A stretch of DNA of 64,000 nt from an uncultured Alphaproteobacteria bacterium (GTDB taxonomy: Bacteria; Pseudomonadota; Alphaproteobacteria; HIMB59; GCA-002718135), in assembly GCA_902521315.1 (NCBI GenBank), contig CABYRH010000008.1, positions 18,066-82,065 on the forward strand, written 5' to 3'. The notes beneath the pieces are model-generated. The model saw only the letters and a program-made list of their open reading frames with translations. It ran no database searches and was not told where the DNA came from. Each line of letters opens with the position of its first letter. Positions within the stretch are counted from its first letter, which is position 1. A program made the position numbers and the translations under genes. Positions 40,094-44,885 of this stretch are shown piece after piece.

Positions 40094-41245
40094 ATGGGAA
40101 GAAGATTAAAACTTGGGATGATAGGTGGTGGCCAAGGAGCTTTTATTGGAGCCGTGCATCGTCTATGTGCAAGGATGGATGATAAGTATGAATTTGTTGC
40201 TGGTTGTTTATCTTCAACTCCTGAAAAAGCAGCTAAGTCTGCTGAAGAAATTGGTCTTGATCCTTCAAGAAGTTACCCTGATTTTAAAACTATGGTTGAA
40301 GAAGAATCTAAAAGAGATGACGGTATTGAAGTAGTATCCATTGTTACACCAAATCATATGCATGCTGCACCAGCAATAGAATTTCTAAATAAAAATATTC
40401 ATGTTATTTGTGATAAACCTATGACTTCTACAATGGAAGATGCTCATAAATTAGTTGAAGCAGTCTCTAAATCTGATGCTCATTTTTTCTTAACTCATAA
40501 TTATTCCGGATATCCAGTTGTTAGAGGTATGAGATCACTTATTGAAAATGGAGCACTAGGGAAAATAAGAATTATTAAAGGATCTTATCTTCAGGGTTGG
40601 CTTGGCTCAAAAGAAGAAGATTCAGGTTCTAATAAACAAGCAGAATGGAGAACTGATCCTTCAAGAAGTGGAGCTGCAGGAAGTGTGGGTGATATAGGAA
40701 GTCATGCTATGCATTTGTTAGAATTTATTACCCAATTAAAATTACAATCAGTTAGTGCAGATCTAACTACATTTGTTGAAGGAAGAAAATTAGATGATGA
40801 TGCTTCTATAATGATCAGATTAAATAATGGAGCTAAGGGATCATTATCTATCTCTCAAGTTGCAACAGGTGAAGAAAATAATTTTAGTGTTGCTATTTAT
40901 GGTGACAAGGGTGCATTGAAATGGAGTCAAGAAAATCCAAATTATGCAACATTTAATCAAGTAGGGGAGGCGAGTCAGATAATAACTAGAGGCGGTTCGA
41001 TTAAAGTTGAAGGAAGTGAAGCTAATGTCCGAATCCCTGCTGGTCACCCAGAAGGATATCTTGAGGCATTTGCACAAATCTATTCAGATGCTGCAGATGT
41101 TATTCAAAATAAAAAAAATAAGGAAGAATTATTAAAGATGCTTCCAAATATTGATGATGGTTTGCACATAATGAAATTTATTAATGCTACTGTAGATTCG
41201 AGTAATAATAATTCTAAGTGGATAAATTTATCTGAAATAAATTGA
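40094..41245 (+). CDS. Gfo/Idh/MocA-family oxidoreductase
   Basis: GGGQGAFIG.VH, ICDKP, GDIGSHA, PAGHPEGY. Confidence 0.9.
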   Translation: MGRRLKLGMIGGGQGAFIGAVHRLCARMDDKYEFVAGCLSSTPEKAAKSAEEIGLDPSRSYPDFKTMVEEESKRDDGIEVVSIVTPNHMHAAPAIEFLNKNIHVICDKPMTSTMEDAHKLVEAVSKSDAHFFLTHNYSGYPVVRGMRSLIENGALGKIRIIKGSYLQGWLGSKEEDSGSNKQAEWRTDPSRSGAAGSVGDIGSHAMHLLEFITQLKLQSVSADLTTFVEGRKLDDDASIMIRLNNGAKGSLSISQVATGEENNFSVAIYGDKGALKWSQENPNYATFNQVGEASQIITRGGSIKVEGSEANVRIPAGHPEGYLEAFAQIYSDAADVIQNKKNKEELLKMLPNIDDGLHIMKFINATVDSSNNNSKWINLSEIN

Positions 41246-41350
41246 TATTTTGGCAGTATTATTAGTTTTTTTTATATATGCAAATATTGCATACCAATAT
41301 TCTCTTAAATATTCTTACTAAAATTCAATAATAAACTAATTCACTTATCA

Positions 41351-41401
41351 CGTTCATCACTCTTTTAGGGTGACGGAAGTAGACGAAAGTCGAAGGAACG
41401 C
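41351..41401 (+). ncRNA. glnA-motif (glutamine-I) riboswitch aptamer 1 of amtB copy 1
   Basis: P1 CGTTC/GAACG+C; P2 TCACTCT-TTT-AGGGTGA; CGGAAGTA..GAAG E-loop; P3 GAC-GAAA-GTC. Confidence 0.88.
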
Positions 41402-41417
41402 ATGCAAAGTTATAAAT

Positions 41418-41468
41418 CGTTCAATTTGCCCTTAGGCAAATCGGAAGTAGGTTAAACCGAAGGAACGC
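41418..41468 (+). ncRNA. glnA-motif riboswitch aptamer 2 of amtB copy 1
   Basis: P1 CGTTC/GAACG+C; P2 ATTTGCC-CTTA-GGCAAAT; CGGAAGTA-GGT-TAA-ACC-GAAG. Confidence 0.88.
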
Positions 41469-41560
41469 GGATCTTAGTAATTAATTTCCATAGCTAAGCA
41501 TGAAAAGTAACGCATGACTCAATGTGAGCCATGTACTGTGAAATTTATAATGGAGGATTA

Positions 41561-42847
41561 ATGTTAAAAAAATCTATATATTTCATTAGCATTATTGCCG
41601 TCTTTATGCTCTTTAGTTCATACGCGAGAGCAGAAGTAGATGGTGAAGTGCAATACATTTTAAATACATTCCTATTTCTTGTATCTGGGTTCTTAGTCAT
41701 GTGGATGGCAGCAGGATTTGCAATGCTTGAATCAGGACTTGTAACGTCTAAAAGTGTAGCAACAATAGCTGCAAAAAATATAGGCTTATATTCTATAGCT
41801 GGTTTAATGTTCTGGTTAGTTGGATATAACATGGCATATGGCATTCCTGCTGGTGGCTTTATTGGATCTCCACTTCCTTGGAGTGATGGTAGTGCTCTAG
41901 ATACAGGTTATTCAGATGGTTCTGACTGGTTCTTTCAGATGGTATTTTGTGCAACAACTTGCTCAATCGTATCTGGAACACTAGCTGAAAGAATCAAAAT
42001 TTGGCCATTTTTTATTTTTTGTGCTTTATTAACTGGTTTCATTTATCCAATCGAAATGGGTTGGCAGTGGGGTGGAGGATACCTAGCGGAAGCAGGTTTC
42101 TCAGATTTTGCTGGATCAACCTTAGTACATAGTGCAGGAGCAGCAGCAGCACTTGCTGGTGCAATTTTGTTAGGTCCAAGATTAGGACGTTTTACTGATA
42201 GTGGTGAAGCAGCTCCAATGGAGCCTTTTGCAAATTCATCAATTCCTCTTGCAACCTTAGGTGTATTTATCCTATGGCTTGGATGGTTCGGGTTTAATGG
42301 TGGATCACAATTAGCTATGGGTACATTTGATGATGTAACAGCAGTAGCAACAATATATATTAATACTAACCTGGCAGCTGGTGCAGGTGTAATGGCTTGT
42401 GCTGTTATTTCTAGACTAGTAACAGGTAAAACAGATGTTGTAATGATGCTTAATGGAGCATTAGGTGGTCTTGTAGCAATAACTGCAGAACCATTAGCTC
42501 CTTCTCCTTTCCTAGCAGTAATCATTGGTGCAATAGGTGGATTAATCGTCTTCTACGGAACAAGACTTTTAATATCTCTTAAAATCGATGATGTTGTTGG
42601 AGCAATTCCAGTACATGGTTTTGCTGGAATTTTTGGAACATTAGTAGTTCCAATTTCAAACACTGCAGCAAGTTTTGGTGCACAACTTTACGGAATTATA
42701 GCAATTAACGTTTTCGTTTTTGTTGTATCATTTATTATTTGGTACATCATGAAAATGCTCTTTGGTATTAGAATTAGTGAAGAAGCTGAAAAACTTGGTA
42801 CTGATAAATCTGAAGTAGGTGTAATGGCTTACAGCATCAGAGACTAA
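41561..42847 (+). CDS. amtB: Ammonium transporter (paralog 1)
   Basis: DFAGSTLVH, LWLGWFGFNGGS, IDDVVGAIPVH; GGAGG RBS supports ATG 41561. Confidence 0.96.
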   Translation: MLKKSIYFISIIAVFMLFSSYARAEVDGEVQYILNTFLFLVSGFLVMWMAAGFAMLESGLVTSKSVATIAAKNIGLYSIAGLMFWLVGYNMAYGIPAGGFIGSPLPWSDGSALDTGYSDGSDWFFQMVFCATTCSIVSGTLAERIKIWPFFIFCALLTGFIYPIEMGWQWGGGYLAEAGFSDFAGSTLVHSAGAAAALAGAILLGPRLGRFTDSGEAAPMEPFANSSIPLATLGVFILWLGWFGFNGGSQLAMGTFDDVTAVATIYINTNLAAGAGVMACAVISRLVTGKTDVVMMLNGALGGLVAITAEPLAPSPFLAVIIGAIGGLIVFYGTRLLISLKIDDVVGAIPVHGFAGIFGTLVVPISNTAASFGAQLYGIIAINVFVFVVSFIIWYIMKMLFGIRISEEAEKLGTDKSEVGVMAYSIRD

Positions 42848-42896
42848 TGAATTTAGTGATTAGCACATCAACTCCTTATAGTTGGTCACTAAAAAA

Positions 42897-42918
42897 TGGG
42901 AGAGCATTTGCTCTCCCA
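42897..42918. terminator. Hairpin after amtB1 (terminator-like)
   Basis: TGGGAGAGC-ATTT-GCTCTCCCA flanked by A tracts on both sides (U tract lies on minus strand). Confidence 0.7.
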
Positions 42919-42946
42919 AAAATGAAAAATATTATTGAGATATCTA

Positions 42947-43321
42947 ATGACTGAAACAGAAATAATTAAAGAGAAAAAAAGAAACATATATTCTAGTTTC
43001 TTTTCAGAAGATTACGTCTCCAAATTTTTATTTAAATCAATTTTACACCATGTTATCTCTCTTGAAATATATGAAAATAATAAATTGAATGGAATTTCGT
43101 TTGAAACAATTTGCGCAAATATACCTAAGTCAATTGGATCTAGATCATCTATTCAATCTATTTTAAACGAAGCTTTAGAAAAAAATATTTTTGTTAAAGA
43201 GCAAAGTAAATCAGACAAACGAATTAAAAATTATTATTTAAGCAATAATTTTCTCGATATGATTAATACATGGTTAAGAAAAGAGGGTTCATTTTTTAGC
43301 AAAATGAGTTTAGAAAATTAA
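42947..43321 (+). CDS. Putative winged-helix (MarR-like) DNA-binding protein
   Basis: HTH-like SRSSIQSILNEA followed by wing motif SDKRIKNYYL; ~124 aa. Confidence 0.55.
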   Translation: MTETEIIKEKKRNIYSSFFSEDYVSKFLFKSILHHVISLEIYENNKLNGISFETICANIPKSIGSRSSIQSILNEALEKNIFVKEQSKSDKRIKNYYLSNNFLDMINTWLRKEGSFFSKMSLEN

Positions 43322-43354
43322 TCAGATTTTATTAATTAAATTTAATACTATTTC

Positions 43355-43382
43355 TTGATAGTTTCCGAATTATAGCTATAAA
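43355..43382 (+). promoter_or_regulatory. Putative sigma70 promoter for riboswitch-amtB2 transcript
   Basis: TTGATA-N16-TATAAA ending 8 nt before aptamer 1; AT-rich background weakens the call. Confidence 0.4.
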
Positions 43383-43390
43383 TCAATTCA

Positions 43391-43441
43391 CGTTCATCAC
43401 TCTATTGGAGTGACGGAAGTAGACAATTGTCGAAGGAACGC
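43391..43441 (+). ncRNA. glnA-motif riboswitch aptamer 1 of amtB copy 2
   Basis: P1 CGTTC/GAACG+C; P2 TCACTCT-ATT-GGAGTGA; P3 GAC-AATT-GTC; same core as 41351-41401. Confidence 0.88.
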
Positions 43442-43457
43442 ATGCAAAGTTATTAAT

Positions 43458-43507
43458 CGTTCAATTTGCAGTTTGCAAATCGGAAGTAGGTATACCCGAA
43501 GGAACGC
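43458..43507 (+). ncRNA. glnA-motif riboswitch aptamer 2 of amtB copy 2
   Basis: P2 ATTTGCA-GTT-TGCAAAT (compensatory change versus copy 1); CGGAAGTA-GG-TATAC-CC-GAAGGAACGC. Confidence 0.88.
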
Positions 43508-43598
43508 GGATCTTAGTAATTAATTTCCATAGCTAGGCATGATTTAATGCATAACTAAAGGGTAGTTATGTGTTTATAATTTTATATGGAGTTAAATA

Positions 43599-44885
43599 AT
43601 GTATAAAAAATTTTTTAGTCTTTTTACAATATTCTCTTTTATTTTGTTGCTAAGTTCATCTGTGAGAGCAGAGGTTGACGCTGAAGTAGCATATATATTT
43701 AATACATTTTCATTTCTAGTTTGTGGATTTTTAGTAATGTGGATGGCTGCTGGTTTTCTATTTTTAGAATCAGGTCTTGTTACAACCAGAAGTGTATCAA
43801 CTATTGCTGCTAAAAATATTGGAAAGTTCGCAATAGTTTCAATTGTTTTCTATTTAATAGGATACAATCTTGGATATTCTGTCCCTGAAGGAGGTTATGT
43901 TGGTACACCATCAATATGGACTGATAATACATCAATGGAAACAGGTTATTCAGATGCTTCAGACTGGTTTTTTCAAGCTTTATTTGTTTGTGCCACTGTT
44001 TCAATTGTATCAGGTGCGGTCGCAGAGCGAATAAAAATTTGGCCTTTCTTTACTTTTGCAGCAGTTCTTGGAGGAGTGATTTATCCAATTCAAATGGGTT
44101 GGGAATGGGGCGGAGGTTGGTTAGATGCCCTTGGATTTGCAGATTTTGCAGGTTCAACATTAGTTCATGCTTGTGGTGGTTCAGCTGCCTTAGCTGGTGT
44201 AATTCTTTTAGGTCCAAGACTTGGGAGATTTAGCGCAAGTGGTGAACCAGCTAATATGGCCCCATTTGCTCCATCATCAATTCCATTAGTTACTCTAGGT
44301 ACATTTATTTTATGGATGGGTTGGTATGGTTTTAATGGCGGGTCACAACTTGCATTAGGTTCTTATGAAGATGCAACAGCAATGTCAAAAATTTTCATGA
44401 ACACTCAACTTGCAGCTTGCGGTGGATGTATGGCTGGCGCAGCAATAACAAGATTGATTGGTGGTAAAACTGATATTGTCATGATGCTAAATGGAGCTCT
44501 TGCTGGCCTAGTTTCAATAACTGCTGAGCCATTAATGCCTAGTCCATTGCTTGCAATTGGAATTGGAGCAGTTGGAGGAATTATAATGTATTACGGAACT
44601 AACTTCTTAAATTCATTAAAGTTAGACGATGTTGTTGGTGCAATACCTGTACATATGTTTGCTGGAATTTGGGGAACATTAGTCGTACCTTTAACTAATC
44701 CTGATGCATCATATGCAATTCAGTTATTAGGTGTTGCATCAGTATGTATCTTTGTTTTTGTTTTCTCATATATTGTAATATATTTAATTAAAAATATTAT
44801 GGGATTAAGAATTAGTGAAGAAGCTGAAAAACTTGGAACTGATAAGGCTGAGGTAGGAGTTGTAGCTTATTCAATAAGAGATTAA
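43599..44885 (+). CDS. amtB: Ammonium transporter (paralog 2)
   Basis: DFAGSTLVH, LWMGWYGFNGGS, LDDVVGAIPVH; collinear with paralog 1. Confidence 0.96.
   Translation: MYKKFFSLFTIFSFILLLSSSVRAEVDAEVAYIFNTFSFLVCGFLVMWMAAGFLFLESGLVTTRSVSTIAAKNIGKFAIVSIVFYLIGYNLGYSVPEGGYVGTPSIWTDNTSMETGYSDASDWFFQALFVCATVSIVSGAVAERIKIWPFFTFAAVLGGVIYPIQMGWEWGGGWLDALGFADFAGSTLVHACGGSAALAGVILLGPRLGRFSASGEPANMAPFAPSSIPLVTLGTFILWMGWYGFNGGSQLALGSYEDATAMSKIFMNTQLAACGGCMAGAAITRLIGGKTDIVMMLNGALAGLVSITAEPLMPSPLLAIGIGAVGGIIMYYGTNFLNSLKLDDVVGAIPVHMFAGIWGTLVVPLTNPDASYAIQLLGVASVCIFVFVFSYIVIYLIKNIMGLRISEEAEKLGTDKAEVGVVAYSIRD

Follow-up and report, generated by a model that had tools for sequence, protein, structure and literature searches.

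A stretch of 64,000 nucleotides (nt) from contig CABYRH010000008.1 of an uncultured alphaproteobacterium of the HIMB59 lineage, called the window here, carries two amtB genes on its forward strand. Each is preceded by a leader in which two glutamine-I riboswitch aptamers (family RF01739) adjoin, followed after about 90 nt by an open reading frame (ORF) of the Ammonium_transp family (PF00909). This analysis concerns the RNA elements of the two leaders: a joining segment (J) behind the second aptamer, which carries a candidate anti-Shine-Dalgarno (anti-SD) tract; a helix, P0, formed between the inter-aptamer spacer and the sequence 3' of J; a hairpin, H; and the ribosome-binding site (RBS) with its Shine-Dalgarno (SD) sequence. 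Together they are tentatively read as a composite switch in which glutamine would repress translation. The features are as follows.

41349 to 41404, plus strand: leader 1, glutamine-I aptamer 1 (RF01739, 61.4 bits, E 4e-11; its helix P1 is 41351-41355 / 41396-41400)
41401 to 41417, plus strand: leader 1 inter-aptamer spacer, 5' strand of P0 (CATGC 41401-41405, AA loop, AGTTAT 41408-41413)
41416 to 41471, plus strand: leader 1, glutamine-I aptamer 2, enclosed by P0 (RF01739, 59.6 bits; P1 41418-41422 / 41463-41467)
41468 to 41489, plus strand: leader 1 joining segment J; its 3' part plus the ATA of P0 (41480-41491) is the candidate anti-SD
41490 to 41502, plus strand: leader 1 3' strand of P0 (ATAGCT, AA loop, GCATG)
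41512 to 41534, plus strand: leader 1 hairpin H, between P0 and the RBS
41550 to 41563, plus strand: leader 1 initiation region ATGGAGGATTAATG (SD GGAGG 41552-41556, start ATG 41561)
41561 to 42847, plus strand: amtB copy 1, 428 amino acids, N-terminus signal-peptide-like (PF00909, E 9.9e-98)
43389 to 43444, plus strand: leader 2, glutamine-I aptamer 1 (RF01739, 59.5 bits)
43441 to 43457, plus strand: leader 2 spacer, 5' strand of P0 (43441-43445 + 43448-43453)
43456 to 43510, plus strand: leader 2, glutamine-I aptamer 2 (RF01739, 55.4 bits)
43507 to 43541, plus strand: leader 2 J with the candidate anti-SD (43520-43531) and the 3' strand of P0 (43529-43541)
43549 to 43571, plus strand: leader 2 hairpin H (GCATAACTA / TAGTTATGT)
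43585 to 43601, plus strand: leader 2 initiation region TATGGAGTTAAATAATG (SD GGAG 43588-43591, start 43599)
43599 to 44885, plus strand: amtB copy 2, 428 amino acids, N-terminus signal-peptide-like (PF00909, E 4.2e-96)

All four aptamer matches are full length (1-53) and score 55.4-61.4 bits, where the gathering score is 35. Judging by their membership in RF01739, the leaders probably bind L-glutamine selectively. The real starts of the two amtB genes are the ATG codons at 41561 and 43599, with GGAGG or GGAG just 5' of each.

The block that follows aptamer 2, GGATCTTAGTAATTAATTTCCATAGCTA(A/G)GCATG, lies at 41469-41502 and 43508-43541 and is identical at 33 of 34 positions. An earlier, sequence-only reading of the locus had pointed to this block and to a tract inside it, TTAATTTCCATA (41481-41492; 43520-43531), as a conserved anti-SD, and the complementarity on which it relied is indeed present, with ATGGAGGATTAA (41550-41561) before the first gene and with TATGGAGTTAA (43585-43595) before the second. 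By RNAduplex, the leader 1 duplex (41480-41491 with 41550-41562) has 12 pairs and one bulged A at -9.3 kcal/mol, and that of leader 2 has 11 pairs at -7.5 to -8.0 kcal/mol. The element TTTCCATA, which joins the 3' end of J to the first bases of the 3' strand of P0, has its complement at the RBS, in (T)ATGGAG(G). As a chance baseline, the 1458 ORF starts called in the source genome (1.54 Mb in 35 contigs, 28.9% GC, 87% complete) were used, each ORF being represented by whichever of its starts had the best SD. Against this background, the two amtB RBS regions rank 54th and 46th of 1458 when a 13-mer is tested, and fall in the best 1.2% and 4.5% of start regions with a 14-mer. The complementarity is real and above chance; in so AT-rich a genome, each case taken alone is modest.

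The leaders were further compared across related genomes. The sample consisted of 77 regions from genomes of the same genus, all matches in nine genomes that represent six further genera of the family, and pattern-scan loci from species-representative genomes (at least 130 stretches). Among the matches listed, 168 unique two-aptamer leaders have an identifiable ORF, namely amtB in 69, glnA in 53, an ATP-grasp gene in 35 and another gene in 11. Base pairs were counted in 60 distinct amtB leaders, and ensemble folds were computed for 67 unique amtB leaders. Among 29 distinct amtB combinations of anti-SD and RBS, TTTCCATA is present in 27, where the duplex has -6.6 to -13.2 kcal/mol; of the other two, one belongs to the genome L057 (-5.2) and one is common to the leaders L110 and L119 (-4.9). 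In the interval from -22 to +14, 18 of the 29 lie within the best 5% of the background. The motif TAATTTCCATAGC is invariant in all 60 amtB leaders. Contiguous pairing between anti-SD and RBS extends to 13 pairs in leader L218 and to 12 in L099 (best 0.27%), the latter being a glnA leader of another genus with the amtB-type pair; a Puniceispirillales-titled record (L186) also carries it. In the RBS variants L206 and L236, the anti-SD helix is retained via U.G pairs.

The second element, absent from the sequence-only reading, is helix P0. In leader 1, the spacer CATGC-AA-AGTTAT (41401-41413) is complementary to ATAGCT-AA-GCATG (41490-41502), the 3' half of the conserved block. The helix has 5 + 6 base pairs (bp) with a 2x2 internal loop between them, and none of 2000 shuffled spacers matches its -10.5 kcal/mol. 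The variable base of the block, A, G or C (41497 / 43536), falls in the internal loop, and P0 is seen in the minimum-free-energy folds of both window leaders. In a MAFFT alignment of every gene class together, the spacer of one class stood a column away from that of another, and the alignment was left out of the pair counts; P0 was therefore counted sequence by sequence with RNAduplex. Among the matches listed, a P0 of 10-13 bp is possible in 161 of the 168 unique tandem leaders and in all gene classes. The spacer measures 16-19 nt in leaders of the P0 type and 17 nt in leader 1. Within the 60 amtB leaders, 10 of the 11 pairs are invariant and pairing holds in 99.7% of cells. Between classes the changes are one-sided and compatible (ATAGCT vs ATAACT opposite AGTTAT; CGTGC giving a G.U pair; GGTTA:TAACT in SAR116-titled records). 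No double compensatory changes occur in P0 among the leaders compared, and the helix rests on conservation and statistics.

P0 shares its ATA with the anti-SD, and aptamer 2 and J are nested inside it. This nesting leaves aptamer 1 without an expression platform to itself, and the leaders have two like aptamers with no separate platform after the first, that is, a dual-aptamer, one-platform arrangement. In eight glnA leaders with the spacer GTTTGAA or GTTAGAA, the predicted pairing gains four pairs into the TTCA of the anti-SD element, a sign that spacer and initiation region may be rivals for these bases. The P1 strands are identical (CGTTC/GAACG) in both aptamers of each leader; the P1 3' strand of aptamer 1 can pair with the P1 5' strand of aptamer 2, which places the spacer in a hairpin loop. 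Such a swapped fold turns up in some unconstrained predictions and would exclude P0. The seven tandem leaders without P0, among the matches listed, come from SAR86- or Gammaproteobacteria-titled records and have a hairpin-forming segment after each aptamer. Records so titled (L118, L129, L137, L141, L162, L174, L178, L184) contain double or triple glutamine aptamers upstream of glnA-like and porin-like genes, in a different design in which every aptamer has such a segment of its own behind it (CGTTA...TAACG; GTTAAAC...GTTTAAC).

Between P0 and the RBS, a preserved hairpin of divergent sequence had been proposed, and this is hairpin H. In the 60 amtB leaders, four of its eight pairs change on both sides (for instance AU in 25 and GC in 23; CG in 27 and AU in 22), 97.1% of cells are paired, and its covariation score is reached by none of 500 shuffles. 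The stem CTTAG/CTAAG, which had been placed around the anti-SD, did not survive the same counts. Pairing holds in only 78.6% of its cells. Of the 60 leaders, 21 have the closing G-C and 38 the second U-A, and no covariation is seen; the stem was rejected for its lack of conservation and because its 3' arm is part of P0. No terminator-like site was found on the plus strand in either leader (41150-43700). Hairpin H itself was considered as an intrinsic terminator and rejected, since no T run follows it on its 3' side and no terminator was called on that strand. A conserved upstream open reading frame (uORF) starting at ATGGAG was likewise rejected for the amtB leaders, as its frame relative to the main start varies with the leader type.

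On these sequence features (the aptamers, the conserved complementarity, the potential for P0 and its conservation, hairpin H and the lack of a terminator), a mechanism can be proposed, in which ligand dependence, the direction of control, a pseudoknot and the joint action of the two aptamers are supposed. Expression of amtB and glnA is expected to be repressed at high glutamine. Each leader would be one composite riboswitch, in which two glutamine-I aptamers act on one shared expression platform. When glutamine is low, J would have its pyrimidine tract held by a purine decoy, either the core GGAAGT(A)GG of an unlocked aptamer, which mimics an SD, or the GGA at the 5' end of J; the ATA would be held in P0, the SD would be free, and AmtB would be made. 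At high glutamine, the aptamer cores would be locked in their tertiary fold, so that J is released, pairs with the SD and blocks initiation. The J:SD pairing might be reached through an H-type pseudoknot stacked on P0, or by displacement of the inner 2-3 pairs of P0. The zero-nt junction between the two helices and the shortening of the long loop by hairpin H would fit an H-type pseudoknot. Since the decoy is the same in both aptamers, occupancy of the two together may be required, and the response would then be sharper.

That the tandem leaders are glutamine-repressed translational switches of a new composite design is the reading favoured here, held tentatively and at slightly less than an even chance. 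A bolder form of it is unlikely. It would have the tandem leaders of marine alphaproteobacteria be two-input devices, in which P0 keeps the anti-SD beside both aptamers, the core of either aptamer can act as its decoy when unliganded, and double occupancy alone releases the anti-SD into an H-type pseudoknot with the SD stacked on P0; they would then be the first repressing glutamine-I riboswitch and would place ammonium uptake, glutamine synthetase and the ATP-grasp operon under AND-like digital control.

Several observations weigh against glutamine repression through the anti-SD, and they concern both the pairing itself and the direction of switching. As to the pairing, 157 of the 1458 background start regions carry GGAG, and among these the leaders of the window reach only the best 3.8% and 14%. 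No covariation was found between anti-SD and SD, the permutation of cognate against non-cognate partners giving 0.09 (n=6) and 0.26 (n=28). Since both partners are near-invariant and the permutation is not significant, the support consists of conserved complementarity, not covariation. A possible distal covariation of J and RBS (TTAA:TTAA vs ATAA:TTAT; L218, L099) was tried and set aside, as this permutation of cognate against non-cognate was not significant. In one genome (L057), disruptive changes are found in both leaders (-8.0 and -5.2 kcal/mol). The SAR116/Rhodobacterales-titled amtB leaders L110 and L119 keep P0 and TATGGAG without the anti-SD; the end of J differs, and the duplex with the RBS (-4.9 kcal/mol) stands at the 24th percentile. 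In glnA leaders built on the same plan, the element reads TTTCATA and its pairing is only weak (median percentile 0.14).

Such findings would be expected if the anti-SD:SD pairing were incidental or auxiliary, and the block were conserved as the 3' strand of P0 and the J of a two-aptamer domain. Control would then act by occlusion through the geometry of P0 and H, through mRNA stability, or by pairing at the start codon, as in the leaders of glnA and the ATP-grasp gene. Whatever the gene, P0 alone is common to all 161 leaders of its type; an AT-rich 14-mer finds at least 7 contiguous pairs in about 24% of start regions; and TTTCCATAG of the ATP-grasp leader faces CTATGG at a uORF start codon, not an SD. 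This explanation is nevertheless doubtful. TTTCC is invariant in 60 of 60 amtB leaders though it lies outside P0, and the RBS keeps (A/T)ATG just 5' of GGAG, which is explained by the pairing alone. The complementarity also lies in the top few percent in most types and extends to the 12-13 contiguous pairs of L099 and L218.

The direction of switching was examined with nearest-neighbour folds, which are nested and exclude pseudoknots as well as tertiary and ligand energy. The earlier proposal was that glutamine frees the anti-SD and blocks amtB; the conserved anti-SD before amtB upholds one half of it, and the nested folds of the tandem leaders do not reproduce the other. With both aptamers of leader 1 locked, the P0 state has -26.1 and the anti-SD:SD state -21.3 kcal/mol, so that locking favours P0 by 4.8 kcal/mol and the SD stays open. 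Over the 67 amtB leaders, the summed pair probability of J with the RBS drops from 4.30 when free to 0.35 when locked. On locking, the mean accessibility of the SD does not fall in these leaders; it goes from 0.37 to 0.46, with 29 leaders up and 2 down. When P0 was masked to imitate the pseudoknot, occupancy of the J:RBS pairing reached only about 13%. The partner of the anti-SD core in the free ensemble also varies: it is the GGA at the 5' end of J in 26 leaders, the RBS in 25 and aptamer 2 in 15, and the core is unpaired in 1 (n=67). In leader 1, the core pairs with aptamer 2 at 0.53, and the unconstrained fold has P0 together with J paired to the core of aptamer 2, with the SD region not paired to J; in leader 2, the partner is the 5' end of J (0.56), not the aptamer. 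All 60 of 60 leaders allow ATTTCC to pair with GGAAGT of the aptamer, with two G.U pairs in addition, but both sides are invariant, covariation is absent, and the pairing is hence uninformative; the three distal pairs that extend it in leader 1 are kept in 41, 29 and 21 of 60, no better than in shuffles. Because P0 outcompetes the anti-SD:SD pairing in nested folds, the OFF direction in tandem leaders would need a pseudoknot or a partial opening of P0. The balance of energies is so fine that small substitutions flip the prediction. The folds are given limited weight.

Taken at face value, these folds describe an ON switch. The unliganded aptamer 2 would be misfolded, with J and the P0 3' strand paired to the RBS; glutamine would then bring about the P1 helices and P0, the SD would be freed, and translation would rise as in gifB. 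The loss of J:RBS pairing on locking, the wider opening of the SD and the lower energy of the P0 state are all what such a switch predicts, and the one experimentally tested glutamine-I riboswitch activates, going by the available part of Klaehn 2018 (PMC6212724). An ON switch is still improbable, since raising ammonium uptake and glutamine synthetase at high glutamine contradicts the logic of nitrogen control. In the free ensemble, the pairing of J with the RBS is only 0.09 and 0.01 in the two window leaders; as this is close to nil, these leaders would not be shut in the absence of ligand. Pseudoknots, tertiary contacts and the energy of the ligand are outside the folding model, and single-aptamer Amt leaders of the same genus fold as OFF switches.

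These single-aptamer leaders (L068, L073, L077, L085, L098, L108) have one glutamine aptamer before a third gene of the Amt family (PF00909). They occur in relatives and have a CT-rich tract 3' of the aptamer and no P0, and the gene has no signal peptide. With the aptamer locked, the accessibility of the SD falls from 0.63 to 0.05, from 0.61 to 0.05 and from 0.56 to 0.09 in three of the six; the other three go from 0.34 to 0.28, 0.54 to 0.46 and 0.58 to 0.60. In the nested model, the CT tract pairs with the purine core of the aptamer when this is free and with the SD when it is locked. Comparison of aptamer-constrained and free folds, which the sequence-only reading had named as a check, thus turns out differently for the two designs: tandem leaders are not predicted OFF, and single-aptamer Amt leaders are OFF in 3 of 6. 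As modelled, the latter show the switching logic of that reading in a simpler setting. No such leader was found in the source genome, which is 87% complete.

That the block is a site for a trans-acting factor, either a small RNA or a protein such as a 128-amino-acid ORF without a Pfam family between the amtB genes, is highly improbable: the block is near-identical in three of the four tandem leaders of the genome, but both of its halves have partners in cis (P0, with its -10.5 kcal/mol and 0/2000 shuffles, and the RBS), and nothing links that ORF to RNA binding.

The source genome contains four tandem leaders, two before amtB, one before glnA and one before an ATP-grasp gene, and the J/P0 block is near-identical in three of them. 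The glnA leader (within positions 1118-1705 of L002, on contig C1) lies directly 3' of a P-II gene (PF00543) and is followed by glnA (PF00120 / PF03951). In it, CATCAAAAG, which is the 5' half of J, can pair as complement with CTTTTGTTG just 5' of the SD, and L043 and L072 have matching insertions on both sides of this CATCAAAAG:CTTTTGTTG-type pairing. A pairing of TTTCATA with the start codon region TATGAAAT in glnA leaders (8-9 bp, median percentile 0.14) was judged not unusual, because ATGAAA starts are common. The ATP-grasp leader (positions 1502-1760 of L001, on contig C1) keeps the J/P0 block, and its gene, of the circularly permuted ATP-grasp kind, is reached via a short uORF of 20 codons (MVKKLD...), the stop of which overlaps the start of the ATP-grasp gene (TAATG). 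Here it is the CTATGG at the start codon of the uORF that TTTCCATAG faces. In ATP-grasp leaders of other species, the variant J AAAATCCATAG faces TGGATTT inside the uORF. For a variant J, AAATTCCCATA, found in three ATP-grasp leaders, a downstream partner was sought and only weak candidates came up (-5.5 to -6.0).

No Pfam family matches the 128-amino-acid ORF (42935-43321) at E <= 0.001; just before it, at 42897-42918, sits a strong terminator-like hairpin that is bidirectional. About 60 nt 5' of leader 1, there is a palindrome, TATGCAA-ATA-TTGCATA (41277-41293), and a similar one, ATATGCA-N5-TGCATAT, occurs 5' of the ATP-grasp leader (L001, about 1427-1445). No such palindrome was seen before leader 2 or the glnA leader. 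The two palindromes may be promoter-proximal operators. Of the other genomes searched, RF01739 is present in 35 of 36 from the same genus and in 0 of 24 from the sister family; a wider sample of the order gave 77 of 79 and 0 of 71.

Other riboswitches share parts of this design. The tandem glycine riboswitch has two aptamers, one expression platform and a leader-linker helix. As in it, two like aptamers here share a platform, and a helix uses the linker between the aptamers; the aptamer fold differs, and the linker pairs here with the 3' flank and encloses aptamer 2. In SAM-II, preQ1 and glutamine-II riboswitches, which are translational OFF switches with an anti-SD or a pseudoknot that includes the SD, the SD or its partner lies within the aptamer. 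Ligand-dependent occlusion of the SD, as proposed for the amtB leaders, would be common to them all, whereas here a separate anti-SD stands between the aptamer and P0.

For the glutamine-I class itself, Weinberg 2010 (PMC2864571) describes, in the part of the article available, glnA RNAs before genes for glutamine synthetase, P-II and ammonium transporters, some of them in tandem; those upstream of amtB and glnA have been known since then from marine metagenomes, and the accessible portion of Bolay 2018 (PMC6316151) has these gene associations restricted to environmental sequences. In Synechocystis, a glutamine-I riboswitch in the 5' untranslated region of gifB activates expression; the same text, so far as available, gives the sign, mechanism and hosts of the marine glnA-linked copies as unknown and calls negative regulation "reasonable" (Klaehn 2018, PMC6212724). 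The amtB leaders are like the gifB riboswitch described in those pages in their aptamer class, in the ligand they would bind and in probable control of a nitrogen gene at the level of translation. The gifB element has a single aptamer and activates, whereas the amtB leaders have two aptamers, P0, a dedicated candidate anti-SD and an amtB target, and would be expected to repress. Tandem glutamine riboswitches were listed in Sherlock 2022 (PMC9481103), in the section available, as 157 doublets and 4 triplets, described as pseudo-cooperative and with multiple expression platforms. Two adjacent glutamine-I aptamers are found there as here; in contrast to the multiple platforms of that list, as far as its available text goes, aptamer 1 has no platform of its own here and the spacer is a strand of P0. 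No description of P0 or of this platform was found in the literature searched, outside which lies Ames & Breaker 2011, a work that may bear on it.

The leaders offer a concrete architecture that can be tested, made up of P0, J with its anti-SD, hairpin H and the RBS, in organisms whose genomes are small and AT-rich. If they are OFF switches, one aptamer class would be wired for opposite outputs, and two aptamers would share one platform by a route unlike that of the glycine riboswitch. As the design heads four leaders in this genome, those of the two amtB genes, glnA and the ATP-grasp operon, it would control much of the nitrogen assimilation of the organism.

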